This document shows, in pieces, positions 9,808 through 33,534 of a stretch of DNA of 64,000 nt; within the stretch, counting starts at the first letter, position 1, and each line of letters begins with the position of its first letter. The DNA comes from Escherichia coli (GTDB taxonomy: Bacteria; Pseudomonadota; Gammaproteobacteria; Enterobacterales; Enterobacteriaceae). The notes under the pieces were generated by a model. That model ran no database searches and had not been told where the DNA came from. It saw only the letters and a program-made list of their open reading frames with translations. Where the stretch lies: assembly GCF_024298765.1 (NCBI RefSeq), contig NZ_CP101210.1; one strand, written 5' to 3'. Position numbers and translations under genes: made by a program.

Positions 9808-11003
<1,196 letters not shown>

Positions 11004-11638: not shown

Positions 11639-11647
11639 CATCCTGCC

Positions 11648-12343: not shown

Positions 12344-13763
12344 TCTTTTTCTCCTGCGCCTGATGTTTCTTAAACCAGCTGCGGAAGCTCTCGCCGTCAG
12401 CATCAGGCAGATCGCGCGCCTCCATCCAGTCACCAATCGCGCCAACCTTGAGCGGGGTTTTGCCGCCATTGAGAAACCAGCTCGCCGCATGCGCGCCCGC
12501 CATCATCCCGACTTTCCACAGCCCCGGATGGCTATTGGCATAGGCGAACATCTTGATCGCCCGTCGCTCGGCTTTCGGCGTAATGCCCTCCTCGGCCATC
12601 ACCCGGCGATGACGCAGGATCAGTTTTGACAACGGAATACGCACCGGGCAGACGCTGTCACAAGCCGTGCACAAAGAACAGGCGTACGGCAGGTCTTTAA
12701 AATCTTTATAGCCGCCGAGCAGCGGAGAAATCACCGCGCCGATAGGGCCGGGATAGATAGAGCCATAGCCGTGCCCGCCGATGTGGCGGTACGCCGGACA
12801 GGTGTTCATACAGGCTCCGCAGCGGATGCAGCGCAGCACATCGCGAAACTCTGAGCCCAGCACCTGCGAGCGACCGTTATCGACAATCACCAGATGGAAC
12901 TCTTCCGGTCCGTCAACGTTGTCCGCCTCACGCGGGCCGGTCAGCCAGGTGTTGTAGCCCGTCAGACGTGCGCCCACGGCGCTGCGCGCCAGCATGGTAA
13001 TCAGCACATCCACCTCGGCAAAGGTCGGCGCGATACGCTCCATGCCCATCACCGCAATGTGCGTTTTCGGTAGCGTGGTGCACATGCGCGCGTTGCCTTC
13101 GTTGGTCACCAGACACACCGAGCCGGTTTCCGCCACGGCAAAGTTACAGCCAGTAATACCGATTTCGGCACTGAGGAAATCCTCGCGGATCTTCTGACGA
13201 ATGAACAAGGTCATAGCTTCCGGGGTTTCCGGGCCGTCGTACCCCAGACGTTCGTTCAGCACGCGGCGGATCTGGTAGCGATCTTTATGAATCGCCGGAA
13301 CCACGACGTGCGAAGGCGGATCCTGATCCAACTGCAGGATATATTCCCCGAGATCGGTTTCGATCACCTGGATTCCGGCATCCTGCAACACATGGTTGAC
13401 GCCGATTTCTTCGGTCACCATCGACTTGGACTTCACCACCTTCTGCGCATTTTTACTCTGCGCGACCTGCAAAATGTAGCGAGTGGCATCTTCTTTGGTT
13501 TTGGCGAAATAGACGTGTCCGCCGTTTTCCGTCACTTTCTCGGAGAGTTGGTACAGGTAAGTGTCGAGGTTGCTCAGAACGTGATCGCGGATCTGGCTGG
13601 CACGATCGCGCCATTCTTCCCAGTGGCCTAACTCATCGACCATTTTTTGCCGATTCGCGCCGATACGCTCCTGCGCATTAGCCACGGCTTTGCGCATAAT
13701 CGGATCTTCTATCTGCTGACGAATACGCAGTTTAAATTCTACATCGCTGGTTTTTATCGACAT
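12336..13763 (-). CDS. ykgF: Lactate utilisation iron-sulfur protein B (LutB/YkgF)
   Basis: 475 aa; two 4Fe-4S ferredoxin-type Cys clusters (CIRCGACMNTCP and CSLCTACDSVCP). Confidence 0.85.
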   Translation of the reverse strand: MSIKTSDVEFKLRIRQQIEDPIMRKAVANAQERIGANRQKMVDELGHWEEWRDRASQIRDHVLSNLDTYLYQLSEKVTENGGHVYFAKTKEDATRYILQVAQSKNAQKVVKSKSMVTEEIGVNHVLQDAGIQVIETDLGEYILQLDQDPPSHVVVPAIHKDRYQIRRVLNERLGYDGPETPEAMTLFIRQKIREDFLSAEIGITGCNFAVAETGSVCLVTNEGNARMCTTLPKTHIAVMGMERIAPTFAEVDVLITMLARSAVGARLTGYNTWLTGPREADNVDGPEEFHLVIVDNGRSQVLGSEFRDVLRCIRCGACMNTCPAYRHIGGHGYGSIYPGPIGAVISPLLGGYKDFKDLPYACSLCTACDSVCPVRIPLSKLILRHRRVMAEEGITPKAERRAIKMFAYANSHPGLWKVGMMAGAHAASWFLNGGKTPLKVGAIGDWMEARDLPDADGESFRSWFKKHQAQEKKNG

Positions 13764-13773
13764 CTCTTTCCCC

Positions 13774-14493
13774 TCAGCGGCTCATCAGCACTTCAGCAAT
13801 ATGCATCACTTTGACCGGCTGGCCTTCCCGTTGCAGTCGACCGCCAATGTTCAGCAGGCAGCTAACGTCTGCGCCAATCAAAAATTCCGGCTTTGCGTCC
13901 ATCAGATGTAATACTTTCTCTTTCACCATCTCACCGGATATCTCGGCCATCTTGACCGAGAACGTCCCGCCAAAGCCGCAACAGGTATCCTGATCGGCAA
14001 ACGTCAACAGCTCCAGTCCGCGCACGTTTTTCAGCAGCGTAAGCGGCTCTTCCTTCACTCCCAGTTTGCGGGTCAGGCTACAGGAAGGATGATACACAGC
14101 GCGGCCCTGCAGGCTGGCACCAACGTCCACCACACCCAGTTTGTTGACGATAAAGGAGGTGAGATCCTGCATACGCGCGGAAACTTTCTCAGCACGCAGC
14201 GCCCATTCCGGTTCATCGGCCAGATACGTCGGGTAGCTTTTAACCGCGTAGGTGCAGGAGCCCGCCGGGGAGATAATCGGATCGTCGTTGTCTTCCAGCG
14301 CGGCGATCAGGTTTTTCATCCCGGGGATCGCCTCTTTGATGTAACCGCTGTTGATGGCTGGCTGACCGCAACACCCTTGCTTCTCGGGGAAATTAACGCG
14401 ACAACCCAGTTTTTCCAGCAGCAATACGGAGTCTCGTGCCATCCGTGATTTCAGTGCGTCACCAATACAGGTGACAAAGAAATTTACATTCAC
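13774..14493 (-). CDS. ykgE: Lactate utilisation protein A (LutA/YkgE), Cys-rich CCG-domain oxidoreductase subunit
   Basis: 239 aa MNVNFFVTCIGDAL...; Cys-rich motifs (CCGQP, CCGFGG). Confidence 0.85.
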   Translation of the reverse strand: MNVNFFVTCIGDALKSRMARDSVLLLEKLGCRVNFPEKQGCCGQPAINSGYIKEAIPGMKNLIAALEDNDDPIISPAGSCTYAVKSYPTYLADEPEWALRAEKVSARMQDLTSFIVNKLGVVDVGASLQGRAVYHPSCSLTRKLGVKEEPLTLLKNVRGLELLTFADQDTCCGFGGTFSVKMAEISGEMVKEKVLHLMDAKPEFLIGADVSCLLNIGGRLQREGQPVKVMHIAEVLMSR

Positions 14494-14567
14494 AATAACT
14501 ACTCCATTGCTTCATTTCTGTTTATTGCGCTTGATATCGCGATATCAAACAAATGTTCATTCGTATT

Positions 14568-16265
14568 TCATGCCCAGTTTTTATGTTTGCTGGTTTTACC
14601 AATACCTGGATTCATAGTGTTGGTCGGATCATTTTCCTGATAAAAACGTGCCAAATTTTCCTGCGCTTTATACAGATGGCCGACATTGTGTTCCGCCGGA
14701 TATTGCGCTCCGCGTTGGCGCAGTAATTCCAGCATCTGTTCTTTTAACGCGTGGGCATCTACGCCTTTTTTAACGATATAATCCTGATGGAATACATGGC
14801 ACATAAAATGGCCGTAATAGAGTTTATGCACCAACTGACTGTCAATTTCCGCCGGTAAATGCTCATACCATTCGGTATCATTGCGGCGTAATGCAATATC
14901 CAGCGCGAGAATATCCTCAACCTCGTCAGAATGAACGGCCTGATAACGAATGGCAGCACCCGCGGCGGCAAAACGATGCAGAAACGCCTTACTGCCCTCT
15001 TCCGCGGTACAGGTAAAGAACGCGCCCTCGGCCGATTTAAAATAGTCCGTTAACCATGCCTGGGCTTCGGCCACACCCTCACCGGACATTTTCAACATCA
15101 GATGGTGTTCATAGTTATCGCGCCAGGTCTTCATCCGCGCCGGGAGATGGCTCGGGAACAGATGGCTAAAAGCCTGCATCGCGCGGTCGGTAAAGTGCGG
15201 GCGAAAGATCTTCACCTTCTCAAGTATGGCCTCGGTACGCCCCTTCAGGTTGAAGAAGAACGGCATTTTGTCCGTGCCAAGTTTGTCGATCATCAGGAAG
15301 GTATCTTTGCTGTATTTCTCTGCAATATCATAGATATCGCGGTGCATATACTCCCCAGCAACCGGCAGGTTTGTAAAATTCGCCAGGATGTGGCGGCGAA
15401 TCTCAGTCAGGACATCAGTCTGATTGGTACCGATATAAAAGACCTGCTGGTTCTTCTCGGCTTCAAAGGTATCCAGACGTACGGCAAACACCGCTAACTT
15501 GCCCGCACAGCCAGAGGATTCAAACAGGCGATCCGGGTCAGCGTTGTAACGTGCTGGCGTGTCGGCATTGATGTCCCGCACGCGGCTAACATAGTCGTGA
15601 TCGTGCGCGTGACGCCCGTCATGGTTGACGAGCACGGCTTCAATCGCATTGTTATCCAGCCGGGCAAGGATTTGCTCTGGCGTCTGACCTAGCTCAATGC
15701 CGAGGTGATTGACCAGCTGCAAGCGTCCCTGTTCATCAATACGGGCAAACAGCGACATCTCGGTATAAGCCGGGCCACGCTGGACCAGAGAACCGCCGGA
15801 GTTATTACAGATACCGCCGATAACCGACGCGCCGATGCACGAAGAGCCAATCACCGAATGCGGCTCACGGCCAAACGGCTTCAGCGCCTTTTCCAGCGAA
15901 TACAGCGTGGTGCCCGGATAAGCCAGCACCTGCTTACCCTCATCCAGCACATGCAGACTGTCCAGCCGCAGCGTGCTGATAATGACGATCTCGCGGTCGT
16001 AATCATTACCATTGGGCGTCGAACCCTCAGTCAGGCCAGTGTTCGACGCCTGCATCAGGATTATTTTATCGGCCTCAACGCAGGCGCTAAGGACTTTCCA
16101 GAGTTCAAGCAAAGAGCCGGGGATAACCACCGCCAGAGCATCACCCTGACCCGAGCGAAAACCCTTACGGTAACGCGCAGTTTTTGACGGTTCGGTGAGG
16201 ATATGAGCAGGGCCAACCAATTGGGTAAGAGTTGTCAAAAAGGTCTTATTATCAGTATGTTTCAT
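14568..16265 (-). CDS. dld: FAD-dependent, quinone-linked D-lactate dehydrogenase (Dld family)
   Basis: ORF 14568..16313; preferred start at MKHTDNKTFL (16265) with ggag about 10 nt upstream; FAD-binding signature GSSCIGASVIGGICNNSGGS; ~565 aa, full length for Dld. Confidence 0.7.
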   Translation of the reverse strand: MKHTDNKTFLTTLTQLVGPAHILTEPSKTARYRKGFRSGQGDALAVVIPGSLLELWKVLSACVEADKIILMQASNTGLTEGSTPNGNDYDREIVIISTLRLDSLHVLDEGKQVLAYPGTTLYSLEKALKPFGREPHSVIGSSCIGASVIGGICNNSGGSLVQRGPAYTEMSLFARIDEQGRLQLVNHLGIELGQTPEQILARLDNNAIEAVLVNHDGRHAHDHDYVSRVRDINADTPARYNADPDRLFESSGCAGKLAVFAVRLDTFEAEKNQQVFYIGTNQTDVLTEIRRHILANFTNLPVAGEYMHRDIYDIAEKYSKDTFLMIDKLGTDKMPFFFNLKGRTEAILEKVKIFRPHFTDRAMQAFSHLFPSHLPARMKTWRDNYEHHLMLKMSGEGVAEAQAWLTDYFKSAEGAFFTCTAEEGSKAFLHRFAAAGAAIRYQAVHSDEVEDILALDIALRRNDTEWYEHLPAEIDSQLVHKLYYGHFMCHVFHQDYIVKKGVDAHALKEQMLELLRQRGAQYPAEHNVGHLYKAQENLARFYQENDPTNTMNPGIGKTSKHKNWA

Positions 16266-16700
16266 GGAGGGCGGCTCTCCGCTCCTTATATCAGGGCCAG
16301 TGAAAATGGCCATAAGTTCATTTGTACGACAAAACAGAATATTCCCTCAATCAATATCCACATGCAATACCCCATTTTATTTCTTTCGGCACCGCTCACA
16401 TTTTTTAATGAAATTACCACTACCACATAATTCATACTCCGTTCTTTTACTGGATGCCAAAACGCTTATTTCATTTATTGCAAAGACCATTTCATACCTA
16501 TTAATGATTAACTCTAATGGGTATTATTATATTTAGTGGTTATTCATATTTAATAAAAAAATAACATTATTTATACAATTATTAACCTTTGTAACTTTAT
16601 TTCACTGAAGCGATTCAGTTTGCATTTTTTATTTTATTATTAAGGTAGCCTCCTTCCCCCTAAATATAGTTAAGTCTAAAAAAGTAAATCGGGAATTGTA

Positions 16701-18254
16701 ATGCACGAATATTTAATGTTTGCTCTGGCACTCTCTCCTTTGCTGCTGATGGTATTTTTAATACTGAAATTAAAAATGCCCATCCATTATTCCGTACTGA
16801 TCTCTTTGGTATTCACCGCTGCACTATCGGCAATATTCTGGGAAATGCCCACACAGAATCTGAAAGCCGCGATAGGCTATGGTGCACTGAAGGGACTATG
16901 GCCGATCGTAATTGTTATCCTCGGCGCTATCTTCAGTTATAACGTCATGCAGGCGACCAAAGCGCTGGATATTCTGCGCGATATTCTCGCCAGCATTAGC
17001 GAAGATAAGCGTATTCAGGTGCTGCTGATTTCATGGTGTTTTGGTGGATTTCTTGAAGCCGCTGCGGGCTATGGCACGGCGGTCGCTATTCCGATCGGTA
17101 TTCTCATTGCGCTGGGATTCAACCCGTTGAAGGCGGCGATTGCTTCCCTCGTAGCAAATACCGTTCCGACCGCATTTGGCGCGGTTGGAATCCCGGTTTC
17201 TATTCTGGCAGAGCAGGTTAATCTGCCGGTTTATACCTTAGGCGGAACCATTATTTTGCAGCTCGCGCTGTTTAATATCCTGCTGCCGTTTGTGATTGTC
17301 TGCATTATTGGCGGTGGCCTGAAAGCCATTCGCGGCGTATTTCTGATCACGTTGATTTGCGGCATTTCCACGCTGGTTCCGCAATATTTTGTCGCCATCC
17401 ATCTTGGCGCGGAATTACCCGCCTTTGCCGGTAGCCTGGTCAGCCTGTTTGCCGTGGCGATGGTCAGTCGCCTGCGCAAAGGGAAAACCGATCCCGAGTG
17501 GCGCATTGAGGTCAGCCATACCCGCGAAACCACGCCGCGCTCGGCAAAAGTGTTGTTCCGGGTTGGCTCTATTTATCTGTTTATTTTTGTGTTTATCCTG
17601 CTGTGTTCGCCGCTGTTCCCGACAATAAAAGGCGCGGCATCCCAACTGGCTTCGGTGCTGCATTTCACGTTGGCTGACGGCAAAACGATGGCGCTGAAAG
17701 TTGAATGGGCGACCACACCGGGGATGCTGATCATCTTTGCGACCATTATCGGCGGTTTTATTCAGGGAGCGTCCGCACGTGGGATGCTGGAAGTATTTAT
17801 CAAAACGATTTTCCAGCTTAAAAACTCTATCGTCGCAATTATGGCGATCGTCGCGCTGGCCACGGTGATGGATCTCAGCGGGATTATCTCCACGCTGGCC
17901 CAGTCGATTGTCGATCTGACCGGCAGCTCGTACGTCTTCCTCGCCCCGGTGATTGGCGCGCTGGGCACGTTCGTGACCGGCAGCGATACCAACTCGAACA
18001 TTCTGTTCGGCAAGCTGCAAACCATTGCCGCCAGCAAGTTACATATCGATCCTAACTGGCTGGCGGCGGCCAATACCTCTGGCGCTACGGGGGGGAAAAT
18101 GATTTCGCCGCAAAGCATCGCCATCGCAGTTTCTGCCACCAAAATGGACGGTCAGGCCAACCAGATTATGTCTGGCACCATGAAATACTGCTGCGCCTAC
18201 ATTGTGATCCTCGGCCTGAAAGTCGGTCTGTTTTATTACTGGTTTATGGCGTAA
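16701..18254 (+). CDS. Lactate permease family (LctP) transporter, a paralog distinct from LldP
   Basis: 517 aa multi-pass membrane protein with the LctP signature GSDTNSN; divergently oriented from dld across an AT-rich intergenic region. Confidence 0.8.
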   Translation: MHEYLMFALALSPLLLMVFLILKLKMPIHYSVLISLVFTAALSAIFWEMPTQNLKAAIGYGALKGLWPIVIVILGAIFSYNVMQATKALDILRDILASISEDKRIQVLLISWCFGGFLEAAAGYGTAVAIPIGILIALGFNPLKAAIASLVANTVPTAFGAVGIPVSILAEQVNLPVYTLGGTIILQLALFNILLPFVIVCIIGGGLKAIRGVFLITLICGISTLVPQYFVAIHLGAELPAFAGSLVSLFAVAMVSRLRKGKTDPEWRIEVSHTRETTPRSAKVLFRVGSIYLFIFVFILLCSPLFPTIKGAASQLASVLHFTLADGKTMALKVEWATTPGMLIIFATIIGGFIQGASARGMLEVFIKTIFQLKNSIVAIMAIVALATVMDLSGIISTLAQSIVDLTGSSYVFLAPVIGALGTFVTGSDTNSNILFGKLQTIAASKLHIDPNWLAAANTSGATGGKMISPQSIAIAVSATKMDGQANQIMSGTMKYCCAYIVILGLKVGLFYYWFMA

Positions 18255-18511
18255 ACCATTGTCAACCCCGTCAAATTCGCGGCAATCGAATTTGACGACA
18301 TAGTGACCAAAAAGGTTTACACCGCCCCGGGAACGGAACGAGGCAACAGACTTTACGATTTGTCGGCGCTGACTAAAATAGCGCCGATGTTTCAAATCGA
18401 GGATTGTTGTTATGTTGTTCTGGAAAAAGATGGTGAAGAAGTTCGACGCCTTTTCCGGTGATGCTGCCAACTTACTGATTTAGTGTATGATGGTGTTTTT
18501 GAGGTGCTCCA

Positions 18512-18787
18512 GTGGCTTCTGTTTCTATCAGCTGTCCCTCCTGTTCAGCTACTGACGGGGTGGTGCGTAACGGCAAAAGCACCGCCGGACATCAGCGCTA
18601 TCTCTGCTCTCACTGCCGTAAAACATGGCAACTGCAGTTCACTTACACCGCTTCTCAACCCGGTACGCACCAGAAAATCATTGATATGGCCATGAATGGC
18701 GTTGGATGCCGGGCAACCGCCCGCATTATGGGCGTTGGCCTCAACACGATTTTACGTCACTTAAAAAACTCAGGCCGCAGTCGGTAA
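18512..18787 (+). CDS. insA: IS1 InsA (DNA-binding protein / transposition inhibitor)
   Basis: 91 aa with zinc-finger CPSC...CSHC; classic IS1 InsA. Confidence 0.9.
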
Positions 18788-19209
18788 CCTCGCGCATACA
18801 GCCGGGCAGTGACGTCATCGTCTGCGCGGAAATGGACGAACAGTGGGGCTATGTCGGGGCTAAATCGCGCCAGCGCTGGCTGTTTTACGCGTATGACAGG
18901 CTCCGGAAGACGGTTGTTGCGCACGTATTCGGTGAACGCACTATGGCGACGCTGGGGCGTCTTATGAGCCTGCTGTCACCCTTTGACGTGGTGATATGGA
19001 TGACGGATGGCTGGCCGCTGTATGAATCCCGCCTGAAGGGAAAGCTGCACGTAATCAGCAAGCGATATACGCAGCGAATTGAGCGGCATAACCTGAATCT
19101 GAGGCAGCACCTGGCACGGCTGGGACGGAAGTCGCTGTCGTTCTCAAAATCGGTGGAGCTGCATGACAAAGTCATCGGGCATTATCTGAACATAAAACAC
19201 TATCAATAA
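18706..19209 (+). CDS. insB: IS1 InsB (transposase catalytic part, expressed as InsAB' by -1 frameshift)
   Basis: 167-aa ORF overlapping the insA 3' end in the -1 frame. Confidence 0.85.
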
Positions 19210-19688
19210 GTTGGAGTCATTACCAATGGTGGTAACCGTATAGTCCCAAATAAAGATAAAAATGCTTCATTCTTACTCACCATTCCATTTGCTAAGTCTG
19301 TTATTGATGAAATATTGAGTAAAGAAAATCTGTCATGGTGCTCGAAAAATACTTTGCCAATATTGCATGCTTTTAGTATTAGAGCTTTAACCTCCTAATT
19401 GCTGAAGTAATGATACAAGCTACAGTATTGGTGACGAATCTATAGACAAGGAGATAAAAACCAAATATCAGAATTATTTTTGATAGTGCTGGTAAAGAAG
19501 CGGTGTTTGATATCAGCATGTTTATCGGAAAAAAGCTTACCTGGAGCTTTGAAAAATTGCAAAGCAGGGCCTGACAATGAAGGCCCTAATACTGTACTGA
19601 ATGTTAACTCAGTACCAAATTACAAGGAAAAGTATTTTTTCTGGTAAGATTCTGTATACATAATAAATCACCTTATAGTTACAATAGG

Positions 19689-20170
19689 TCAAAAACCGCT
19701 GTAGCCAAAGTTACGCTGGCCTGATGCTTTAGTGTCGAGCTTCGTCAAATAATCCAGACGTACCAATAAGCGCTGGTACTGCTCTGGGAAATCAGGCTCG
19801 TTAATATCCAGGATGTAACGTCCATTAGCAGGGAAATGAACTAATCCCTGGTGATCTTCCAGTTCCAACCCTAAGGCACTGTACCAGGCTCCGGTAATTA
19901 ACCCTCTCAGTGTGTCAGAGCGCTCATAGTTTCCCAGGTGGTAATAGGCGTCTTTGTTAAAAAAAGGCAGACGTGATAATGACATTTAAAGGACTGCGTA
20001 TATTCTTTCGCCCAGATAATACAAACCGCCGTTGCGTAGGTGCGTTTGCCTTGTTGTTTTTTACTGTGTTGATCTGCATTAATTTTCGCATTCAGCGAGT
20101 TACGGAAACGAGATATCTCTCCGGGGATCAGGTTAGGGAAACAGGTAATGATATCCCCGTTGTCAATCAC
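19689..20170 (-). pseudogene. Hypothetical gene, apparently frameshifted (two overlapping minus-strand ORFs 20170->19907 and 19985->19689)
   Basis: Two same-strand ORFs overlap in different frames between IS1 copy 1 and IS2; no family recognised. Could be unrelated spurious ORFs. Confidence 0.25.
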
Positions 20171-20260
20171 AGGAGGGTAATGGAGATCCCCCCGTATTGC
20201 TGTTATTCTGGAAGTGTTTTTAATATTCGTATTGATAGTTCTCAGAGATTGGATTTGCCC

Positions 20261-21166
20261 CTATATTTCCAGACACCTGTTATCACTTAACCCATTACTG
20301 GCCCGCTGCCGTAGATATTCCCGTGGCGAGCGATAACCCAGTGCACTATGCGGGTGCCATTCGTTATAATGCTCGAACGCCTCTGCAAGGTTCTTTGCTG
20401 CCGTTAACCCGTCTGGTTTAGGCATGATACTGATGTAGTCACGCTTTATCGTTTTCACGAAGCTCTCTGCTATGCCGTTACTCTCCGGACTCTGCACCGC
20501 CGTGTTCTTCGGTTCAAGCCCTAATATCCGGGCAAACTGCCGTGTTTCATTAGCCCGGTAGCATGAACCATTATCCGTCAGCCACTCTACTGGAGACGCC
20601 GGAAGCTCGTTGCCGAAGCGGCGTTCCACCGCTCCTGGCATGACGTCCTGTACTGTTTCACTGTCGAAGCCGCCCGTAGTGACTGCCCAGTGCAGTGCCT
20701 CACGGTCACAGCAGTCCAGCGCGAACGTGACTCGCAGTTTTTCTCCGTTATCACAGCGGAACTCGAACCCGTCAGAGCACCATCGTTGATTGCTTTCTTT
20801 CACGGCCACTTTGCCAGTATGTGCCCGTTTCGATGGCGGTACAGCGGTTTTTCGCTCAAGCAACAGCGCATTCTGGCGCATGATCCGGTAAACACGTTTG
20901 GCATTGATCGCAGGCATACCATCAAGTTCGGCCTGTCTGCGAAGCAGCGCCCATACCCGACGATAACCATACGTGGGCAGCTCTCCGATAACATGGTGTA
21001 TACGGAGAAGCACATCCGTATCATCTGAGTGACGGCTGCGGCGACCATCTTTCCAGTCATCGGTTCGTCTGAGAATTACGTGCAACTGCGCACGCGACAC
21101 CCGGAGACAACGGCTGACTAAGCTTACTCCCCATCCCCGGGCAATAAGGGCGCGTGCGCTATCCAC
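20261..21166 (-). CDS. insD: IS2 transposase OrfB (InsD)
   Basis: 301 aa with DDE-transposase C-terminus ...[18 protein letters not shown]. Confidence 0.9.
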
Positions 21167-21489
21167 TTTTTTGCACGCCCGTATTCAACGGCTTCTTTAA
21201 GGAGTTCATTTTCCATCGTTTTTTTGCCGAGCAGGCGCTGGAGTTCTTTAATCTGCTTTATGGCAGCAGCAAGTTCAGAGGCAGGAACGATCTGTTCTCC
21301 TGCGGCCACAGCAGTAAGACTTCCCTCCTGGTATTGCTTGCGCCAGAGAAATAACTGGCTGGCTGCCACACCGTGTTGCCGGGCAACAAGGGAGACCGTC
21401 ATTCCCGGTTCAAAGCTCTGCTGAACAATAGCGATCTTTTCCTGTGTAGTACGCCGTCTGCGTTTCTCCGGTCCTAAGACATCAATCAT
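21124..21489 (-). CDS. insC: IS2 OrfA (InsC), HTH protein
   Basis: Start at [26 protein letters not shown] within ORF 21124..21534. Confidence 0.85.
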
Positions 21490-21533
21490 CTGCTCTCCAA
21501 TGACTAGTCTAAAAACTAGTATTAAGACTATCA

Positions 21534-23450
<1,917 letters not shown>

Positions 23451-23463
23451 TACCGCAGGAGGC

Positions 23464-24918
23464 ATGATGGAGAGCATTAATAATCAAGTGCAGTCGGTAC
23501 GCCAGTTGCTGGCCATTCCCCAACTGGCCATCCCAAGCTATCAGCGACCTTACCGCTGGGGCTCCAAGAATATCTCGGATCTCTTTACCGATTTGGCAAC
23601 CCATCAGGACAAGAGCGCCTACCGGCTGGGCTCGGTGGTGTTTCATCAGCACACCGATAGTGAGCAGGGCGAAATGCTTGATATCGTCGATGGTCAGCAA
23701 CGCACCCTGACCCTGATGTTGACCGTCAAGGCGCTGATCGAGGTGCTGGATAACGAAAATCGCAGTGGCAAAGAGAAGAGTATCCGGTTTCAACGTCAGG
23801 ATCTGCGTGAGCAATTGCAGGTCTTGCGTGGACCTATCGATGCGTTTATGCAGCGCCAGCGCTTCCCCAGCCGGGATTCGGAGTTCAACCTCAGACGTAA
23901 CTATCTGGAGTTGCGTCGGCTGGTGGCCCGCCCTGAGTTTGACGAGCAGCAAATTGACTTTCTGCTCAACCGCTGTCAGGTGGTCTGCTTTGTACTGCAG
24001 GATATCTCGGAGGCGTTCCAGTTCTTCGATTCGCAAAATGCCCGGGGGCGCGATCTGGCTCCTCACGATCTGCTCAAGGCATTTCACCTGCGCGAGTTTG
24101 CCGGTCATGAGGCCAATCTCAAGGCCGAGGCGGTCGCCCATTGGGAGCGCCTGCCAAGCGACGAGCTGGCCAATCTGTTCGCCCTCTATCTCTATCGGGT
24201 ACGCCAGTGGGCCGAGGGCAAGTCGGCCCGCTACTTTGGCAAGGGGGAGGTGGATCTCTTCAAGGGGGTCAACCTAGATCGGGTAGGGCATTATCCTTAC
24301 GTGGAGTCGCTGCGCATCGCCCACCACTTTGTCGATGAGTACAACAGCCAGTACCAGCGCAAGATTGACGGCCAGTACATGACGTTTCCCTTTCATCTCG
24401 ACCAGATGATCATCAATGGTCGGCGCTTTTTCGAGATGGCCGAGTACTACCAGACGCGGGTGGCCGCCATCGTGGCCGAGGAGTCTGATTCCGGCAAGGC
24501 GCAATCTGCCACCCTGCTCGGCGAAACGCTGACACCGATGGCCAGCAAGGTGCTATCGACCCTGGGCAGCTACGAGCGTCGCCACCGCACCGGGGATCGT
24601 TATGTGCGGGCCATGTTCGACTGCGCCCTGATCTTCTATATCGACAAGTTCGGCAGCCAAGGGCTGTCACTGGCCATCGAGAAGTGCTTTATCTGGGCCT
24701 ATCGCTGCCGCATCCGCCAGCAGGTAGTGCAGTTGGCAACCATGGATAACTATGTGCTGGAGCACAATCTGATCCGTGCCATTCGTGATGCTCGTCTGCC
24801 GGGAGATCTGCACGGCTTCCCTTTGCCTAGCATGAGCAGTCGAGAGAACAAGAACAATCGCAATGGTGCCGAAGATGAGCTGGTCGGGCTGTTTCGGGAG
24901 ATGAAATATTATGAATGA
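23464..24918 (+). CDS. DUF262 (ParB/Srx-like NTPase fold) protein; candidate defence component, GmrS-like
   Basis: 484 aa; DUF262 signature [10 protein letters not shown] ... [13 protein letters not shown] and [18 protein letters not shown]; RBS aggagg before the ATG; 3' end overlaps the next gene by 8 bp. Confidence 0.75.
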
Positions 24919-26953
24919 TGCAGGCGTTCGCCCCTTTTCCATTCGTGCACTGCTTGAAGATCGCGCCCGCTATCTGGTGCCCATGTACCAGCGCAACTAT
25001 GCCTGGGGTGAGGGAGAGATCACCCAGCTGCTGCAGGATGTGCTGGATTATCAGCAAAAATTGGTCAGTGGTAAGGGGCCGCAAACCTACTATATCGGCA
25101 CCCTGGTGGTGTTTGCCCGGGACGATGGCAGTTTCGAGGTAATCGATGGCCAGCAGCGCTTTACTACCCTCTCTCTGCTGGCCAATTGGCTCAAACATCA
25201 CGCGATAGATTCGGTGGATATGAGCTGGTATCAGACCATCAACCTCGCTTTTGAGAGTCGCCCGATATCGAGCCATACCTTCGAGCGCTTATGGCAGGGG
25301 GTTGCCCCCGACGATTTGCGGGGGAGTACCTTCAATGAAGGTTTGGTGAACGGTTTTGAGCTGATTGGCAAGGCAATGGCGGAGCTTGGTTTGGTAGGGG
25401 CTAAACTGACGGCCTTTTGCGACTACCTCTTCAAGCATGTGCAGATCTCTCGTATCGAAGTACCCAAGGATACCGATCTCAATCACTTCTTCGAGGCGAT
25501 GAACAATCGCGGCGAGCAGTTGGAAAAGCATGAAGTGATCAAGGCGCGGCTGATGGAGACGCTGAACCAGATACCCGAGGAAGAGCATCGTCGCCAAAGT
25601 ATTCATATCCTGACCCGGGTATGGGATGCCTGCGCCAATATGGAGCGCTATATCCAGTACGGCTTTACCCCGCAAGAGCGCCACCGTCTGTTTGGTGAGA
25701 GCGACTGGGGTCAGTTTGTGCCCCGTGATTTTGCCCATCTGCTTGATCTGCTAGGATCCCCAAACACGGCCGACGCTGCCGATAAAAGCCGTGCAGCTGC
25801 CGGTAGCCAAGGGCGCACCTTGTTGGCCATTTTGCAGGATGACAAGCTTGATGGTGAGCAGACGGTGGAGGAGGAGAGCGCAGGCTCCGAGCGCTTTAAC
25901 AGCGTCATCAACTTCTCCAACTTCTTGCTCCATGTGCTGCGACTCGTGAGCCGCGACCCGGGTAATACGGAGGGGGTGCCGCTTGATGATAAACAACTGG
26001 TCGATCAGTTTGAGCTGCGAGTGATAAGGCAACCGGATCCAGTAGCGGCAGTTCAGCGTTTTATCTATGGCCTGTTAAAGAGCAAGTATCTGTTTGATCA
26101 GTTCATCATCAAGCGCGAGTTTGCCGATGGCAAGGATAGTTGGAGTCTGAAGCGGCTGCACTGGTATTCGGAAAAGAGCGTCAGTTACATCAATACCTTT
26201 GACAAGGATGAAAATGAGAATGGTTTCTCTGGTGTTAACCGGCGGGTCCTGATGTTGCTGTCGGCGTTTCATGTGTCGACCCCGACCCTGGTTTACAAAC
26301 ATTGGCTGAATGGTGCACTGAGATATCTGTTCGACAATTGTCACCCTGATCAACCGGTGGATGCCGGGGCTTATCTGTCCTATCTGGAGAGTCAGGCTCG
26401 CCGCTTTGTCTTCCAGCGCTTTTTAGCGCCTGGTGAAGGGGCTTCCTATTACCAGATGCTCTACCTTGATAACGCCCTGTTGCCCGCCATCAATGTGGAT
26501 GAGAGTTGGCACAAGGTGATTACATCCAAACTTCGCTTCGGTCATATCGAGAACAACTTTGTCTTCAACTTCCTCGACTATCTGCTGTGGGTACGAGATC
26601 GGAATAGCGACAAAGTTGCTGGCTCCTTTGAGTTCACTTTCCGCAGCTCGGTGGAGCACTTCTCACCCCAGCATCCGATGGATGGCTATAAACCGGTTGA
26701 GCAGAGTGCACTCCATTCGTTTGGCAACCTTTGCCTTATCAGCCACAGCAAGAACTCGCGCTTGAGTAACTTCCAGCCGCAACAGAAGCAGGAGCACTTT
26801 GAAGCAAGCCTTGCCAATAACCAGACTGATAGTCTTAAATTGCTTGCTATGATTCGGCTGATGAAAGATAAAGGTCGTTGGCTGGAAGATGAGATAGCTG
26901 TGCATCAACAAGATATGTTGCAGGTCTTACTATCCAATCAAATTCAGCAATAA
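24911..26953 (+). CDS. DUF262-DUF1524 two-domain protein (GmrSD-like type IV restriction-enzyme architecture: N-terminal NTPase, C-terminal His-Me finger nuclease)
   Basis: 680 aa; N-terminal YQRNYAW ... [11 protein letters not shown] and [17 protein letters not shown] (DUF262); C-terminal [14 protein letters not shown] ... [17 protein letters not shown] (DUF1524-like). Confidence 0.75.
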
Positions 26954-27023
26954 CGGATTGAATCTGTTGGTGATGCTGCCAACTTACTGATTTAGTGTAT
27001 GATGGTGTTTTTGAGGTGCTCCA

Positions 27024-27299
27024 GTGGCTTCTGTTTCTATCAGCTGTCCCTCCTGTTCAGCTACTGACGGGGTGGTGCGTAACGGCAAAAGCACTGCCGG
27101 ACATCAGCGCTATCTCTGCTCTCATTGCCGTAAAACATGGCAACTACAGTTCACTTACACCGCCTCTCAGCCCGGTACGCACCAGAAAATCATTGATATG
27201 GCCATGAATGGCGTTGGATGCCGGGCAACCGCCCGCATTATGGGCGTTGGCCTCAACACGATTTTCCGCCATTTAAAAAACTCAGGCCGCAGTCGGTAA
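27024..27299 (+). CDS. insA: IS1 InsA
   Basis: 91-aa ORF, one substitution (L to F) relative to copy 1. Confidence 0.9.
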
Positions 27300-27721
27300 C
27301 CTCGCGCATACAGCCGGGCAGTGACGTCATCGTCTGCGCTGAAATGGACGAACAGTGGGGCTACGTAGGTGCTAAATCACGTCAGCGCTGGCTGTTTTAC
27401 GCGTATGACAGGATACGGAGGACGGTTGTGGCGCACGTCTTCGGTGAACGCACTCTGGCCACACTGGAGCGTCTTCTGAGCCTGCTGTCGGCCTTTGAGG
27501 TCGTGGTATGGATGACGGATGGCTGGCCGCTTTATGAATCACGCCTGAAGGGAGAACTGCACGTTATCAGCAAGCGATTTACGCAGCGCATTGAGCAGCA
27601 TAACCTGAATCTGAGGCAGCATCTGGCAAGGCTGGGCAGGAAGTCACTGTCGTTCTCAAAATCGGTGGAGCTGCATGACAAAGTCATCGGGCATTATCTG
27701 AACATAAAACACTATCAGTAA
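27218..27721 (+). CDS. insB: IS1 InsB
   Basis: 167-aa ORF overlapping insA. Confidence 0.85.
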
Positions 27722-27736
27722 GTTGGAGTCATTACC

Positions 27737-27964
27737 CAGCTCATCGCGCAGTGAGCCAAAATCCGCATCTGAAGCACGGTCAAAAAGGTAATCCAGTTTG
27801 CGATTTACGTCGCTCAGCTGGTTGGTAACTATTTTCAACCCGGACTCCAGATCACCTGGGCCAGCTTCAAGGCAGCGCCGCAGATACTCTGACCGATTAC
27901 CACCTGAAACCAGGTCTATATAGGCCAAAAGTTCATCTGATACTTTTGCGGTTATTGTTGGCAT
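27737..27964 (-). pseudogene. Ribbon-helix-helix (CopG/Arc/TrwA-like) DNA-binding protein gene, 3' end interrupted by IS1
   Basis: MPTITAKVSDELLAYIDLVSGGNRSEYLRRCLEAGPGDLESGLK...: beta-strand then two helices as in RHH proteins; after ~76 codons the frame runs into the IS1 end (ORF 27656..27964). Confidence 0.5.
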
Positions 27965-28302
27965 CCAGTCCTCACTTTGTGCATTTTTTAAACGAAAAAA
28001 GGGTGTCTAATACGGTGAAATCATAGTATTACCAAAGTAATAAATAAAAATTGTTTTAAATCAGTAGGTTAGATTAGATTTGTAATGCCTGGGTAATACC
28101 GCAGCATGGCTAAATTTGGTTTTTTTTCTTTTAAATCAGTTGGATAGCGTGATTTATCACGCTGCGTTAGGTGTATAGCAGGTTAAGGGATAAAAAATCA
28201 TCTTTTTTTGGTAGGGCGATCTCCGTAGGTTAAGGGTCATTTGGCTAAAAAGCGTCCTATTCTTTGATGGTCATGCTTGCATGACCATCTGAGCAACCAA
28301 AA

Positions 28303-28448
28303 ACTACAGATAAACTACAGATAAACTACAAAAAACGTTTTGCCTTAGTATTGGAAGACTACAAATAGACTACAATAAAACTACAAAGAAACTACAAAAA
28401 ACATGACAGACTACAAATAGACTACAAGAATACTACAGATAAACTACA
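28303..28448 (+). repeat. Iteron array: 11 copies of ACTACA(A/G) in 11-bp register, three clusters (3+4+4); candidate centromere-like or operator site
   Basis: ACTACA at ~28303, 28314, 28325, 28358, 28369, 28380, 28391, 28410, 28421, 28432, 28443; preceded by a perfect palindrome gatggtcatgcttgcatgaccatc (28266-28289); just upstream of the StbA-like gene. Confidence 0.8.
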
Positions 28449-28509
28449 AAACTCGATTGACCCCTTCTTACGAGTGTTGTAGAGTCATTTTCATACAACG
28501 GAGGGGGTT

Positions 28510-28904: not shown

Positions 28905-29091
28905 ATGAAAGTAGCGGTAATTAATTACAGTGGCAGTGTTCGTAAAACCTTAATTTCATCTTACCTGTTAGCTCCGCGCCTGACTGGTGCAAAGTTCTAT
29001 GCGGTAGAGACTATCAACCAGTCTGCTTCCGATCTGGGTATTGAAAATGTGACCAGTTTTAAAGGTGACGACTTCTCACGTTTGATTGAGG
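28905..29091 (+). pseudogene. N-terminal fragment of a ParA/StbB-like ATPase gene, truncated by a solo IS1 end
   Basis: MKVAVINYSGSVRKTLISSYLLAPRL... resembles a deviant Walker-A start; ORF ends at 29096 where the IS1 terminal sequence begins. Confidence 0.4.
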
Positions 29092-29123
29092 GGTAATGAC
29101 TCCAACTTACTGGTAGTGTTTTA
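29092..29123. mobile_element. Solo IS1 terminal-repeat remnant (~32 bp)
   Basis: ggtaatgactccaacttactggtagtgtttta matches the IS1 end (ggtaatgactccaacttattgatagtgtttta) with 2 mismatches, then diverges. Confidence 0.7.
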
Positions 29124-29173
29124 GCGAAGTTAAGTGACACAATAGTTTAATCTGGAGGAATTAATGAAGAGTT

Positions 29174-32113
29174 ATGAGTAATTTTAATTTTCTAACAGAC
29201 ATCAGCCCTGAACTCGCTCAATTTGGTAAAAGTGCCGAGCTGTATTACCATGATGATAAGCAGGTAGCACTAGTGAAACTTAGGTGTTTTACTGAAGTAG
29301 TCGTTGGGGAAATTTATTCACGTTTATCGCTAACCCCACCTGTTCGTGATGATTTATATAATCGACTGCGCAGCTACGAATTCAAGGACGTTGTCAGTGA
29401 TAAGGGAATCTGGGCCAAATTAGATGTATTGCGACATAAAGGTAACAAAGCCGCCCACTCTAGCAATGGTTCAGACGAGATTTCCCTCAATGAAACACTC
29501 TGGTTAATCAAAGAAGCTTATTTAGTCGCCCGTTGGTATGCTCAAGCTATTCTCAATAAGCCTATCACTCCGCCAGAGTTTGTTGATCCGGTAAAACCTA
29601 TCGATCATACATCTCGCTTAGAAGCAGAGTTAGAACGGCAACGTCAAGAACTCAATAAACGAGAGGCTGAATTAAAGACCCAGCTTGCTGATAATAGTGA
29701 TAAATATCAACAACAGACGAGTGAGCTAATAGCTCAACTAGACGAAAAAAACGACACACTTTCCAATGTAAAAAAAGAGCAAGCACTATTACAGATTGAA
29801 CTTGAACAAAAACAAAAAGATCTAGTCGCTTCACAACAAGCCTTCTTTGATTACAGGACGCGTGAAGAGTTTAAACAAGCTAGTATTTCATCAGCTTCAA
29901 GCTTTGATCTTGATATGGAAGTGACGCGCCGAAATATTGATATATTTGATTGCTTTGAAGGAGTAAGTTTAACTAAAGGTCAAAACCAAATAGTTAAGCA
30001 AATAAATGAGTTTCTAACCGATACCAAACAAAACGTATTTTTACTTAATGGTTATGCAGGTACAGGTAAAACATTTATAACTAAAGGAATTACTCAGTAC
30101 CTAGAAAGAATTGGTCGTGAATTCGCTATTATGGCCCCGACGGGGAAAGCCGCGAAAGTGATATCAGACAAAACAATGCAACCTGCCAGCACTATTCACC
30201 GCGTGATATACAATTACGACAACGTGAAAGAGTACAAAGTTGACGGTGTGGAAGGGTCTGAAACTTATCGTTGCTATGCTGACCTTAAAGTCAATGTAGA
30301 TACTGCCGAAGCTGTTTATATAATTGATGAAGCGTCAATGGTTTCTGACAGATATTCCGATGGTGAGTTTTTTCGTTTTGGGAGCGGATATTTATTAAAA
30401 GACTTGCTCAAGTACATAAATATTGACCACAACGATCATAATAAGAAAGTTATTTTTATTGGTGATAATGCACAGTTGCCACCTGTTGGAATGAATACGT
30501 CACCAGCGCTAGATGCCAGTTACCTTAAAGAAAATTATCAAGTCGCTGTGGCTTCAGGGCACTTGACTGAAGTTGTTCGTCAAAAAGGTGATAGTGGTGT
30601 TTTGAACAATGCTGCCATGTTGCGTGACGGTTTAGAGCAAAATCTTTTCAATAAACTGAAATTTGAAGTTAATGATCATGATGTATTTAATTTGTCCTCG
30701 GAAAATCTACTTAGCACTTATCTAGACTCATGTGATAGAAAAGTTAGCCGTACAGGAGAAAGTATTATTATTGCTTCTTCAAACCGACAAGTAGCTGAGT
30801 ATAACCGTTTGGTTAGAGAGTACTTCTTTACTGGTCAACAGCAAATGGTCGCGGGAGATAAAGTCATTTCGGTAGCAAATCACTATCGAGCAGACGCTTG
30901 TATTACCAATGGTGAATTTGGAATGATCAAGGAAGTACTATCTCCTCATTCTGAGTTGATTAGTGTTGACATTAGCGTCAAAGGTGACACTGGTGACATG
31001 GTTAAGCGAAAAGTAAATCTGAGTTTTAGGGATGTGATTCTAGGCTTTCGCAACGACTACGGTGAACCATTCTTCTTTGAAGCCAAAATTGTAGAAAACC
31101 TACTTTACAATGATCAGCCGACCTTATCGTCAGATGAGCACAAAGCACTCTATGTTCACTTTTTAAATCGACACCCAGAACTGAGACGTAAAGGTAATGA
31201 ACAAAAGCTTAGAATTGCATTATTGCAAGATCCTTATTTCAATGCTTTTAAACTTAAGTTTGGTTATTCCATTACTGGACACAAAGCACAGGGTAGCGAA
31301 TGGAAAACTGTTTTCTTACAGTGTCAAACACACCAAAAAGCCTTAACTAAAGATTACTTCCGCTGGTTATACACCGCTATAACGAGAACTTCTGGCATCC
31401 TGTATGTAATGAATCCACCTCAGTTGCGCTTAGGAGATGGAATGAAAATAGCAGGAGCGTACCAACCCAAAGCAGTAAACCTAGACAATTCTGCTCCTGA
31501 AGGCGTTGAGGTTGTGCGACCAAGTACCGAAGCAACGAACTCAGTAGCCACAGCGAAGTTTGATTTTCAGACTGACATCCCGCAACTTAAAAAGCTATAC
31601 CAACTTGTTGATGCATGTATTGAAGGTACAGGGATTACTGTAGTGGATGTCCTTCATTATAACTATCAAGATCGTTACATCTTGCAGCGCGGGAATGAGC
31701 AGGCTTCGATAAGTTTCAATTACAAGGGTAACTGGAAAGTGTCTGGCGTAAAGAGCATTACTCAAGATGGGTTCGATGTTGAACTCATGGCTTTGCTTGG
31801 TCAATTAGAAGGTACTTTGCTCGATGTACCTGAGCCTTCAAAGGATACTCAGTTCCATTTTTCAGAGCCATTCTTAGAAGAGTTTTATCTAAATGTAATG
31901 GATCAAATCAACAGTGTTGGAGCTGATATAAGCAAAATTGAATCTCGTTCATTTTGTGAAAGATATGCATTTGTTAAAGGCAATGAGTTGGCGGTAATTG
32001 AGTTTTGGTACAACAAGTCTAGCCAGTTTACTAAAGTTCAACCTATGCCTCAGCTTAGTAATTCCACAAGGCTCATTGACGAAATAATATGTCAAATAGG
32101 TGTGCTTCTATGA
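29174..32113 (+). CDS. Large SF1B (RecD/Pif1/Dda-like) helicase with an uncharacterised N-terminal helical domain and a coiled-coil linker; candidate defence effector/sensor
   Basis: 979 aa. Helicase motifs: Walker A NGYAGTGKTF, IMAPTGKAAKV, Walker B IIDEASMV, motif III VIFIGDNAQLPPV, motif V/VI SITGHKAQGSEWKTVFL. N-terminal ~130 aa contains LDVLRHKGNKAAHS (possible DUF4145/HEPN-like R-x7-H); residues ~140-230 are a heptad-rich E/Q/K/L segment. No relaxase motifs. Confidence 0.75.
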   Translation: MSNFNFLTDISPELAQFGKSAELYYHDDKQVALVKLRCFTEVVVGEIYSRLSLTPPVRDDLYNRLRSYEFKDVVSDKGIWAKLDVLRHKGNKAAHSSNGSDEISLNETLWLIKEAYLVARWYAQAILNKPITPPEFVDPVKPIDHTSRLEAELERQRQELNKREAELKTQLADNSDKYQQQTSELIAQLDEKNDTLSNVKKEQALLQIELEQKQKDLVASQQAFFDYRTREEFKQASISSASSFDLDMEVTRRNIDIFDCFEGVSLTKGQNQIVKQINEFLTDTKQNVFLLNGYAGTGKTFITKGITQYLERIGREFAIMAPTGKAAKVISDKTMQPASTIHRVIYNYDNVKEYKVDGVEGSETYRCYADLKVNVDTAEAVYIIDEASMVSDRYSDGEFFRFGSGYLLKDLLKYINIDHNDHNKKVIFIGDNAQLPPVGMNTSPALDASYLKENYQVAVASGHLTEVVRQKGDSGVLNNAAMLRDGLEQNLFNKLKFEVNDHDVFNLSSENLLSTYLDSCDRKVSRTGESIIIASSNRQVAEYNRLVREYFFTGQQQMVAGDKVISVANHYRADACITNGEFGMIKEVLSPHSELISVDISVKGDTGDMVKRKVNLSFRDVILGFRNDYGEPFFFEAKIVENLLYNDQPTLSSDEHKALYVHFLNRHPELRRKGNEQKLRIALLQDPYFNAFKLKFGYSITGHKAQGSEWKTVFLQCQTHQKALTKDYFRWLYTAITRTSGILYVMNPPQLRLGDGMKIAGAYQPKAVNLDNSAPEGVEVVRPSTEATNSVATAKFDFQTDIPQLKKLYQLVDACIEGTGITVVDVLHYNYQDRYILQRGNEQASISFNYKGNWKVSGVKSITQDGFDVELMALLGQLEGTLLDVPEPSKDTQFHFSEPFLEEFYLNVMDQINSVGADISKIESRSFCERYAFVKGNELAVIEFWYNKSSQFTKVQPMPQLSNSTRLIDEIICQIGVLL

Positions 32114-33534
32114 ATGAGCCAGCTAATCGTACAGTAAATAATTTGAGAAAGAGCGGAGACCTGCAAGGGGCTTGGGAGTTTGGTTTTCAAGCGTTGCAGG
32201 CAGCTCCCCAAGATACTTACTTGAAAGGTGCTTTATTTTGGGTGTGTTATGAGTTTCTTAAGCACCAGCTTGAAAATCTAAATAAGCGAGCGAGTTCTTC
32301 AAACAACTATCGTCCTACTGATTTTGAATTTGAGCAAATAGAGAACTTGCTGCAAACCATAGTAAATTTAGATATTGCTACTGGCGGCCTAGAGTACAAA
32401 ATGCTGCTGGTTCAGTTTAAGAAGAGTTTGGAATGGTTTCCAACCTTGATTCACCTTGTGCTTCGACATCAAACTGTACTATTTGATGATGAGGCTAAAA
32501 CACCTTTTCAAGCTGAAAAAGGTGAAGTGCCAAGTTTGATGCTCTCAACAGCACGCCAAGTGGCGAGTGCATGGCTTAGAGCACGAGAGTATTGGCATCT
32601 AGATCTTAACCAAGTGATGGCATTTATTAACCAAACACGCGAGCAAGCCTCTGACACTAAACATATGATGTGGCTTGATTACGACCAAGCGAAGTGCCTT
32701 GTTGTTGCGGGCCAATACGATCAGGCTCGCGAACTCATTCTACCCATTTTAAGAAAGAAGCAAAAAGAGTCTTGGGCTTGGGGAGCGTTGGCTGCTACTT
32801 ATTCAAAACAAGATCAGCGTTTAGCAATGAAGTTTTTTGCTAGGGGAATAGTATCCGCACATGACGTTACTTTTAGTTTACGTTTATTACAGGGAATTAT
32901 TCCTTTATTACTTGCAAATCAACAGCAAGCTGAAGCCTCAATGTGCCTAAAAACGGCTATTGCGGCTTATCAAGCCCATGGGTGGAAGCTAAAGCAAGAG
33001 CTAGAACAGCTATCTATGCAGGCTTGGTATGATTCTGGTGTCGATGAGAAGCAACTGAGTCCTTTTTTAAACTCTATTTCTCACGACGCTTTAAATTACT
33101 TGCATGGGCCGATGGAGAAGGTTGTTGCTATCGTAGAGAATATCCATAAATCCGGTAAAGGCTTTCAAGTATTCGTAAATAAGTCGACATCACTATCAGT
33201 TCGCATGGGGGTTCATAAAGGTAAGCAGAAACCTCAGGCTGGTGACTATGTCGAGCTATCCGTAGCGAGTGTTGATGGAAACAAAGAAGTAGTAGCTTCC
33301 TCATCGTCCAAGCAAGTAGATATGGCTGATGTTTCGTATGTAGAGGGTACGCTTCGAATAGCACCCAAAGGCTTCGGATTTGTCGAGGATACTTTTGTTC
33401 CTCCCTTTGTTATAGGTAATTTAAAAAATGAAACAAAAGTCAGAGCACTCCGTATCATGAGTTGGGACAAATCTAAAGCTCGCCACAACTGGAAAGCGAT
33501 TAAGTTAACGGAACTAAATTTTAATGAAGACTAA
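32110..33534 (+). CDS. Uncharacterised protein with N-terminal TPR-like helical repeats and C-terminal cold-shock/OB-fold-like region, translationally coupled to the helicase
   Basis: Start at MNEPANRT (ATG 32110, overlapping the helicase stop; ORF-track start 32089 rejected); C-terminal ...GTLRIAPKGFGFVEDTFVPPFVI resembles the GFGF cold-shock/S1 motif. Confidence 0.65.
   Translation: MNEPANRTVNNLRKSGDLQGAWEFGFQALQAAPQDTYLKGALFWVCYEFLKHQLENLNKRASSSNNYRPTDFEFEQIENLLQTIVNLDIATGGLEYKMLLVQFKKSLEWFPTLIHLVLRHQTVLFDDEAKTPFQAEKGEVPSLMLSTARQVASAWLRAREYWHLDLNQVMAFINQTREQASDTKHMMWLDYDQAKCLVVAGQYDQARELILPILRKKQKESWAWGALAATYSKQDQRLAMKFFARGIVSAHDVTFSLRLLQGIIPLLLANQQQAEASMCLKTAIAAYQAHGWKLKQELEQLSMQAWYDSGVDEKQLSPFLNSISHDALNYLHGPMEKVVAIVENIHKSGKGFQVFVNKSTSLSVRMGVHKGKQKPQAGDYVELSVASVDGNKEVVASSSSKQVDMADVSYVEGTLRIAPKGFGFVEDTFVPPFVIGNLKNETKVRALRIMSWDKSKARHNWKAIKLTELNFNED

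Follow-up and report, generated by a model that had tools for sequence, protein, structure and literature searches.

The window analysed here is a stretch of 64,000 nucleotides from an Escherichia coli chromosome, in which two copies of the insertion sequence (IS) IS1, referred to as IS1-L and IS1-R, enclose a 7.7-kb interval that ends in a pair of DUF262 genes (Table 1; all positions are those of the window). The locus is a variable island that lies, according to the RefSeq annotation, between an Ag43 gene and tRNA-Thr/proA. The interval is very probably what remains of a plasmid-type phage-defence cluster that was shaped by IS deletions and recombination, and not a transposon that arrived as a unit. 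For each IS1 copy, the outer junction is old and widely shared, and the inner junction is young. The chromosome of E. coli 2020CK-00188 (NZ_ABACVG020000001.1), the source strain, is a 100% match to 12.5 kb around the interval, and it was the only one of 5,426 complete E. coli genomes in which at least 80% of this 12.5-kb region was covered. At the same coverage, the whole unit of IS1, interval and IS1 was found in none of the 5,000 best-scoring plasmid records out of 72,556. An earlier reading of the window, made from the sequence alone (the sequence-only reading), had hinted at a mobile, IS1-bracketed segment; with a unit present in a single genome and parts that have separate histories, this hint did not survive. 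The same reading had also proposed, from the missing flanking duplications, an origin of the region in IS-mediated deletions and recombination and not in simple insertions, and the comparator genomes described below now support this directly.

We compared the junctions of IS1-R with those in related strains, using the element plus 400 bp on each side as the query. Both junctions together were found in the source strain only. The outer junction, between IS1 and a truncated traK gene (traK'), occurred in one piece in at least 14 other records and in the Klebsiella IncR plasmid pS165-1.3, and the inner junction, which lies 14 bp beyond the stop codon of the second DUF262 gene, was found outside the source strain in 50EVA and CUPF09 only. 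Strain EM20-18-50 is 99.9% identical to positions 20953–26968 of the window, including a 102-bp duplication upstream of the DUF262 pair. Beyond the pair, this strain carries hhe, a group II intron and debris of IS3, IS30, IS66 and IS5, followed by an IS1 that is identical to IS1-R at 768 of 768 positions and that has the same right flank, CAGCTCATC. THO-010 is arranged likewise and has 14,020 bp between its DUF262 pair and the IS1 at traK'. Thus, for IS1-R there is a relative that retains the DNA between the new junction and the conserved IS, which is the pattern expected of an adjacent deletion. As EM20-18-50 retains 13,247 bp to the left of an identical IS1, the inner junction of IS1-R is therefore a deletion that ends exactly at the IS1 terminus. 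The comparison shows an IS1 resident at traK' that, as read from the alignments, has lost all leftward DNA up to the point 14 bp past the second DUF262 stop codon.

IS1 promotes adjacent deletions, as established in classical IS1 genetics. The loss of about 13 kb (hhe, the group II intron and the IS debris) up to the left terminus of the resident IS1 is the signature of such an IS1-adjacent deletion, i.e., of intramolecular transposition. As in the classical cases, the IS is retained, one junction is conserved, a variable deletion starts from the exact other terminus, no target-site duplication is present and related strains have nested end points. Unlike the classical cases, the deletion is seen here by comparing natural isolates rather than by laboratory selection, and a two-step route could also have been taken, in which a local IS1 hop followed by recombination between IS1 copies would leave the same end sequence.

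The IS1 at the DUF262 junction of 50EVA and CUPF09 is IS1-R-type at its left end (positions 1–344 and 1–127, respectively) and IS1A-type thereafter, and it leads to other right flanks. These mosaics fit later recombination between IS1 copies in those strains. Based on 50EVA and THO-010, we considered that IS1-R itself might be a chimera of the DUF262-junction and traK'-junction copies, and we dropped this candidate since EM20-18-50 has the identical isoform at traK'. In CUPF09 (L016, 9401–19168), the DUF262-junction IS1 is followed by an inverted hsdR-hsdS-hsdM-GTPase-Ag43 block, as if the left part of the island had been inverted by an IS-mediated event.

Both IS1 copies have the hallmarks of complete elements: a length of 768 bp, both terminal inverted repeats (about 23 bp, located by a pattern search for ends) and insA/insB' open reading frames (ORFs) of 91 and 167 amino acids, with the programmed frameshift annotated by RefSeq. 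They are directly oriented, with 43 differences between them (94.4% identity, i.e., 5.6% divergence); the sequence-only reading was right in describing two 768-bp copies of distinct isoforms in the same orientation at these coordinates. Its statement that none of the IS1, IS2, IS5 and IS903 copies has flanking duplications also held when we mapped the ends base by base. No target-site duplication of 8–9 bp flanks IS1-L (GCCTTTTCC on the left, AATGGTGGT on the right) or IS1-R (GAATCTGTT on the left, CAGCTCATC on the right), and neither the outer flanks of the two copies (GCCTTTTCC versus CAGCTCATC) nor their inner flanks (AATGGTGGT versus GAATCTGTT) match each other. Likewise, we found no 5-bp duplication around IS2 (GAGAT left, CCAGG right), no 4-bp duplication around the ISKpn26 copy in the window (TTAG left, CAAG right) and no 9-bp duplication around IS903B (TGCTTCGAT left, GTTGCCAAA right). 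As a positive control, identical end mapping recovered CTAA/CTAA around ISKpn26 on a Klebsiella plasmid. The loss of target-site duplications through recombination between IS copies or through adjacent deletion is documented and common (PMC11708052). We attribute the missing duplications of the two IS1 copies to deletion or recombination at their junctions.

The two junctions of IS1-L were also found together in the source strain only. Its outer junction with lctP was present in one piece in about 39 chromosomes, and its inner junction, with the 3' remnant (X') of a gene that we refer to as gene X, was present in no other record. On its right, the lctP-junction IS1 has a different flank in each of the strains inspected (the window, 13P460A, ET210, G3/10 and G47-1). 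Expressed in window coordinates, this IS1 joins position 19225 in the window, position ~27925 within traK' in ET210 and position 29509 within the PDC-M16A gene in 13P460A; elsewhere, it joins a TetR gene (G3/10) or the remnant of an ABC permease gene (G47-1). Judged from these end points, deletions from the same IS1 appear to have extended further in ET210 and 13P460A. We rejected ET210 as the exact product of recombination between the two IS1 copies of the window, as its right junction lies ~190 bp further to the right and its IS1 is another mosaic. A pre-deletion comparator for the junction of IS1-L with X' was not found among 13P460A, G3/10, ET210 and G47-1, none of which leads to gene X. 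This inner junction may have formed by the same route as that of IS1-R, or by recombination between IS1 copies.

The sequence-only reading had further claimed that either IS1 truncates a neighbouring gene. This is correct for IS1-R, where the ribbon-helix-helix (RHH) gene proved to be an IncN-type traK cut at codon 76 of 138. The claim failed on the other side, where a small ORF at 18405 (ATG at 18412) had been taken for a truncated gene: in an 85%-identical, uninterrupted relative, it corresponds to an unannotated ORF of 25 codons that is followed by palindromes resembling repetitive extragenic palindromic (REP) elements, and nothing supports its status as a gene. Absent from that reading were the truncation of gene X by the right end of IS1-L and the 102-bp tandem duplication.

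The ancestral form of the interval would be hsdM-hsdS-yecA-hsdR-sprT, followed by a two-gene DUF262/GmrSD-like pair and then hhe. An intact cluster of this kind, with the order hsdM-hsdS-yecA-hsdR-sprT-(IS debris)-DUF262-DUF262-hhe, is found on Klebsiella IncFIB (pKpQIL-like) plasmids such as pKP_160-3. Positions 21790–22917 and 23032–26968 of the window, which hold the hsdM and hsdS remnants (hsdM' and hsdS'), the IS3-family fragment and the DUF262 pair, are collinear with pKP_160-3 at 97.6–99.7% identity, the value for hsdM' against the plasmid hsdM being 97.6%. Unlike the plasmid cluster, the chromosomal copy is without the hsdM 5' end, the hsdS 3' end, yecA, hsdR and sprT, here also without hhe, and it has gained IS2 and the IS1 flanks. 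Alignment to related genomes, which the sequence-only reading had suggested as a way to find intact versions of the disrupted genes, thus yielded the intact cluster on pKP_160-3 as well as an intact gene X in THO-010 (WP_002461143.1).

Two joints within the remnants were present in every E. coli chromosomal copy inspected. The joint between IS5 (10858) and hsdM (21790) amounts to a 2,664-bp deletion relative to pKP_160-3, which runs from the interior of ISKpn26 to the interior of hsdM and shows no microhomology. At 22917/22918, hsdS is joined internally to an internal part of an IS3-family element, a joint that removes the hsdS 3' end, yecA, hsdR and sprT. IS2 would have entered the truncated IS5 after these joints were formed. 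The edges of IS2, the IS5 fragment, the IS3 fragment and IS903B may represent further deletion or recombination joints.

The DUF262 genes stand next to each other, both encode an N-terminal GmrSD_N domain (Pfam, E = 2e-28 and 1.7e-29) and the second only encodes GmrSD_C (E = 1.5e-11), which is the make-up of a two-gene GmrSD-like system: adjacent genes, N-terminal DUF262 in both and DUF1524/GmrSD_C in one. The first protein is identical to the Klebsiella plasmid copy (WP_000443938.1). PADLOC returned domain-level matches only, to the N-terminal part (HEC-06, Orf5 and SspE), with mREase_IV also listed, and our search of the PDB returned weak N-terminal DUF262 matches only (E = 3e-6). By its domains, the pair can be likened to TgvAB of the Vibrio cholerae island VPI-2 and to GrwAB (PMC12409362), which share DUF262/GmrSD_N at the start of both proteins and DUF1524/GmrSD_C in one. 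The reported restriction of phages with modified DNA by TgvAB needs both proteins (PMC12409362). As with TgvAB/GrwAB, which are associated with type I restriction-modification (R-M), the intact plasmid version of our pair adjoins a type I R-M operon. Unlike TgvAB/GrwAB, however, DUF7834 is present in the first protein, the pair is located downstream of, and not embedded in, the R-M operon, and in this chromosome the R-M partner is destroyed and hhe is deleted.

The DUF262 pair was annotated as intact in all nine arrangements inspected, with decaying neighbours. Because the pair is intact in each of them and the flanking type I R-M system and hhe have repeatedly been destroyed, the TgvAB-like pair could be selected cargo, with independent IS events trimming the plasmid defence cluster until a self-sufficient type IV restriction module of two genes is left. 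We regard this as rather unlikely.

Two intact, direct IS1 copies around cargo with intact defence genes might suggest that the 9.3-kb interval, IS1 copies included, is a Tn9-like IS1 composite transposon that carries the DUF262 pair, was inserted as a unit and is perhaps still transposing. It resembles Tn9-type composites in that two direct IS1 copies flank a few kb of cargo. It differs from them in that the outer ends, GCCTTTTCC and CAGCTCATC, form no 9-bp repeat, the IS1 copies are 5.6% divergent, the flanks and the cargo have separate histories, and the unit is not seen elsewhere (1 of 5,426 genomes, with the two-junction forms confined to the source strain). For each outer junction, many of the genomes that have it lack the other IS1 or the cargo, and EM20-18-50 and THO-010 reveal that synteny between the cargo and the right flank predates the contact of IS1-R with the cargo. 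Insertion as a composite transposon is thus extremely improbable. We give equally little credence to an assembly artefact, in which contigs were collapsed or mis-joined at IS1 repeats. The junction of IS1-L with X' and the two-junction form of IS1-R do occur in this assembly only, and the record is labelled as whole genome shotgun; however, it is a single 4.88-Mb chromosome sequence, and all junctions except that of IS1-L with X' are found independently in other complete genomes. A mis-join through identical repeats is also unlikely because the chromosome has just two IS1 places, which differ at 43 sites.

An explanation that deserves more weight, although we still favour it less, is that the inner junctions arose without any transposase-driven adjacent deletion, purely by RecA-dependent recombination of IS1 copies that were already present, with exchange also involving DNA that arrived from other strains or plasmids. 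The isoform mosaics in ET210, 50EVA and CUPF09 are clear, the flanks of IS903B and ISKpn26 combine differently between strains, and the modules on both sides of the interval are also plasmid-borne, all of which speaks for recombination. On the other hand, none of the strains in the collection combines a DUF262-junction IS1 with hhe, and none carries an IS1 within gene X. Moreover, IS1-R is identical over its full length to the traK' copy of EM20-18-50, with no crossover visible. We consider such an origin possible but less likely.

Several points also weigh against our preferred reading, that of a defence-cluster leftover shaped by IS deletions and recombination. By sequence alone, a transposase-driven adjacent deletion in one step is inseparable from a local IS1 hop with subsequent RecA recombination of identical copies. 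Because the IS1 copies in related strains (e.g., ET210, 50EVA and CUPF09) are mosaics, apparently as a result of gene conversion or recombination between isoforms, lineage arguments based on isoforms are soft. The mechanism proposed for the junction of IS1-L with X', as well as the sequence that would have been lost there, is drawn by analogy. About a dozen comparator genomes, all drawn from one collection, underlie the order of events, and segments of the island may have been exchanged between strains by homologous replacement.

Table 1. Features of the IS1-bounded interval and its flanking modules, in window coordinates.
Feature	Position	Strand	Description
ISKpn26 (IS5 family)	9808–11003	-	Complete, 1196 bp; source-like copy of the 209-bp repeat
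IS1-L	18457–19224	+	IS1A-type, 768 bp; insA/insB intact
Gene X 3' remnant (X')	19225–19398	+	58 codons including stop; cut by right end of IS1-L
YagK/YfjJ ('inovirus Gp2') pseudogene (Gp2')	19689–20254	-	Frameshifted; start abuts IS2
IS2	20250–21580	-	Complete, 1331 bp; both inverted repeats, orfA/orfB intact
ISKpn26 internal fragment (IS5)	21581–21789	-	209 bp; cut by IS2 on the left, fused to hsdM interior on the right
hsdM'	21790–22641	+	Type I methylase without first ~667 nt, frameshifted; N6_Mtase in two frames (Pfam)
hsdS'	22631–22969	+	N-terminal ~95 codons; fused to IS3-family sequence at 22917/22918
IS3-family transposase 3' fragment	22918–23341	+	C-terminal part of rve domain (Pfam)
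Tandem duplication	23246–23450		Two ~102-bp copies, about 95% alike, one indel; end of IS3-family fragment
DUF262 gene 1	23464–24918	+	GmrSD_N and DUF7834, intact; PGAP start 23467
DUF262 gene 2	24911–26953	+	GmrSD_N and GmrSD_C/DUF1524, intact
IS1-R	26969–27736	+	Divergent isoform, 768 bp; insA/insB intact
traK'	27737–27964	-	IncN-type relaxosome accessory (RHH) gene; first 76 of 138 codons kept; cut by IS1-R
IS903B	33689–34745	+	1057 bp; right boundary of plasmid-derived traK'-stbA-PDC-M16 module

The contents that the sequence-only reading had listed for the interval (a frameshifted ORF, a complete IS2, a 209-bp IS5 fragment, hsdM and hsdS remnants, an IS3-family fragment and the DUF262 pair) were confirmed at base resolution. 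Gene X, which encodes a hypothetical protein of 257 amino acids in its intact form, has no Pfam or NCBIfam match. The frameshifted ORF is indeed frameshifted but not unknown, as had been stated: Pfam detects YagK_YfjJ_C in two frames, identifying a YagK/YfjJ pseudogene. IS2 is 95.3% identical to IS2A of K-12 over 1331 bp, free of gaps and with matching ends, and has ORFs of 136 and 301 amino acids. Its right junction is widely shared among relatives. Its left flank depends on the strain, being Gp2' in the window and THO-010 and a truncated ISL3 in GF8; in EM20-18-50, IS2 itself is truncated at ecpC'. The 102-bp tandem duplication lies directly upstream of the first DUF262 gene, and its unit is present in two copies in the window, 50EVA and EM20-18-50 and in one copy in most relatives, among them the Klebsiella plasmid, DDG206 and THO-010. 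Tandem Repeats Finder did not report this duplication, which was established by sequence comparison.

The IS5 fragment is 100% identical to positions 10650–10858 within the complete ISKpn26, and the two copies form a 209-bp direct repeat with a spacing of 10.9 kb. This repeat could readily serve for a deletion of the lactate module, IS1-L, Gp2' and IS2. DDG206, 23CRST022 and CUPF09 have a collapsed layout in which IS5 (9808–10858) is joined straight to hsdM', which is probably the older state.

From left to right, the island contains an intact type I R-M system, ISKpn26, gntP'-lutCBA-dld-lctP, IS1-L, the interval, IS1-R, traK'-stbA-stbB'-AAA ATPase-TPR, IS903B and island genes of the Gp2/YfjI type. 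The leftover cluster is sandwiched between two IS-bounded modules, each of which contributes one IS1: on the left, the recurrent 9.4-kb IS5-gntP'-lutCBA-dld-lctP-IS1 module and, on the right, an IS1-traK'-stbA-stbB'-PDC-M16-IS903B module that would derive from IncN/IncR plasmids. The left unit (9808–19224), with ISKpn26 as its left boundary, was found in G3/10 and G47-1 at 99% with both flanks different, and it behaves like an IS-bounded lactate-utilisation cassette. A diverged version of it occurs on plasmids. IS2, ISKpn26 and IS903B each have only one flank in common with relatives, and the left and right flanks of IS903B recur in differing combinations among other strains. The IS1-to-IS903B module is also present on plasmid p2EC1-3.

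Within the right module, the first 76 residues of traK' align to the 138-amino-acid TraK of an IncN plasmid, and the remainder of the ORF is IS1 sequence. The 76-residue remnant has no Pfam match, and its one NCBIfam match, to a MazE antitoxin, is below threshold (E = 1.1e-4). Between traK' and stbA (28301–28450) lies an array of 11-bp tandem repeats (2.7 + 8.7 copies), which sits at the position of the IncN-type oriT/StbA-binding repeats, now chromosomal and beside a truncated traK. In the region 28905–33534, an ORF of 63 amino acids covers no more of StbB (NCBIfam NF041292) than its first 62 residues. The genes after it encode an AAA/RecD-like ATPase and a TPR/M48 protein, both of which match, over their entire length, PADLOC's candidate defence pair PDC-M16A/B.

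In the 2020CK-00188 chromosome, there are only two IS1 places and one IS2, all within this island; among E. coli genomes that match our IS1-containing queries at all, the median is 11 matching places. Rfam identified no RNA family within the interval. Elsewhere in the window, its matches at the gathering score were to the IS102 RNA family, at 2302–2538 and upstream of the gene for the GTPase, and to naRNA4 (REP-derived), of which the core region has three copies (56254–59262), both on the minus strand. Further to the right, positions 37898–38191 and 38374–38667 form a 294-bp direct repeat with 78% identity. This is a partial gene duplication that involves a YfjI-family gene and an adjacent DUF3987 N-terminal pseudogene fragment.

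The phenomenon described here is already known, and the region is real but ordinary. It nevertheless provides a clean natural example of defence-island erosion driven by IS1, with one pre-deletion comparator that carries the identical IS1, and the related isolates form a nested deletion series from one IS1. It also shows that flanking repeats and distribution need to be checked before an IS-bracketed layout is taken for a composite transposon. If the DUF262 pair is indeed selected cargo, the module now lies between two active IS1 copies and could be mobilised or deleted en bloc. For the strain, the consequence is that hhe and one type I R-M system have been lost, while the GmrSD-like pair, a second type I R-M system and the PDC-M16 candidate remain.

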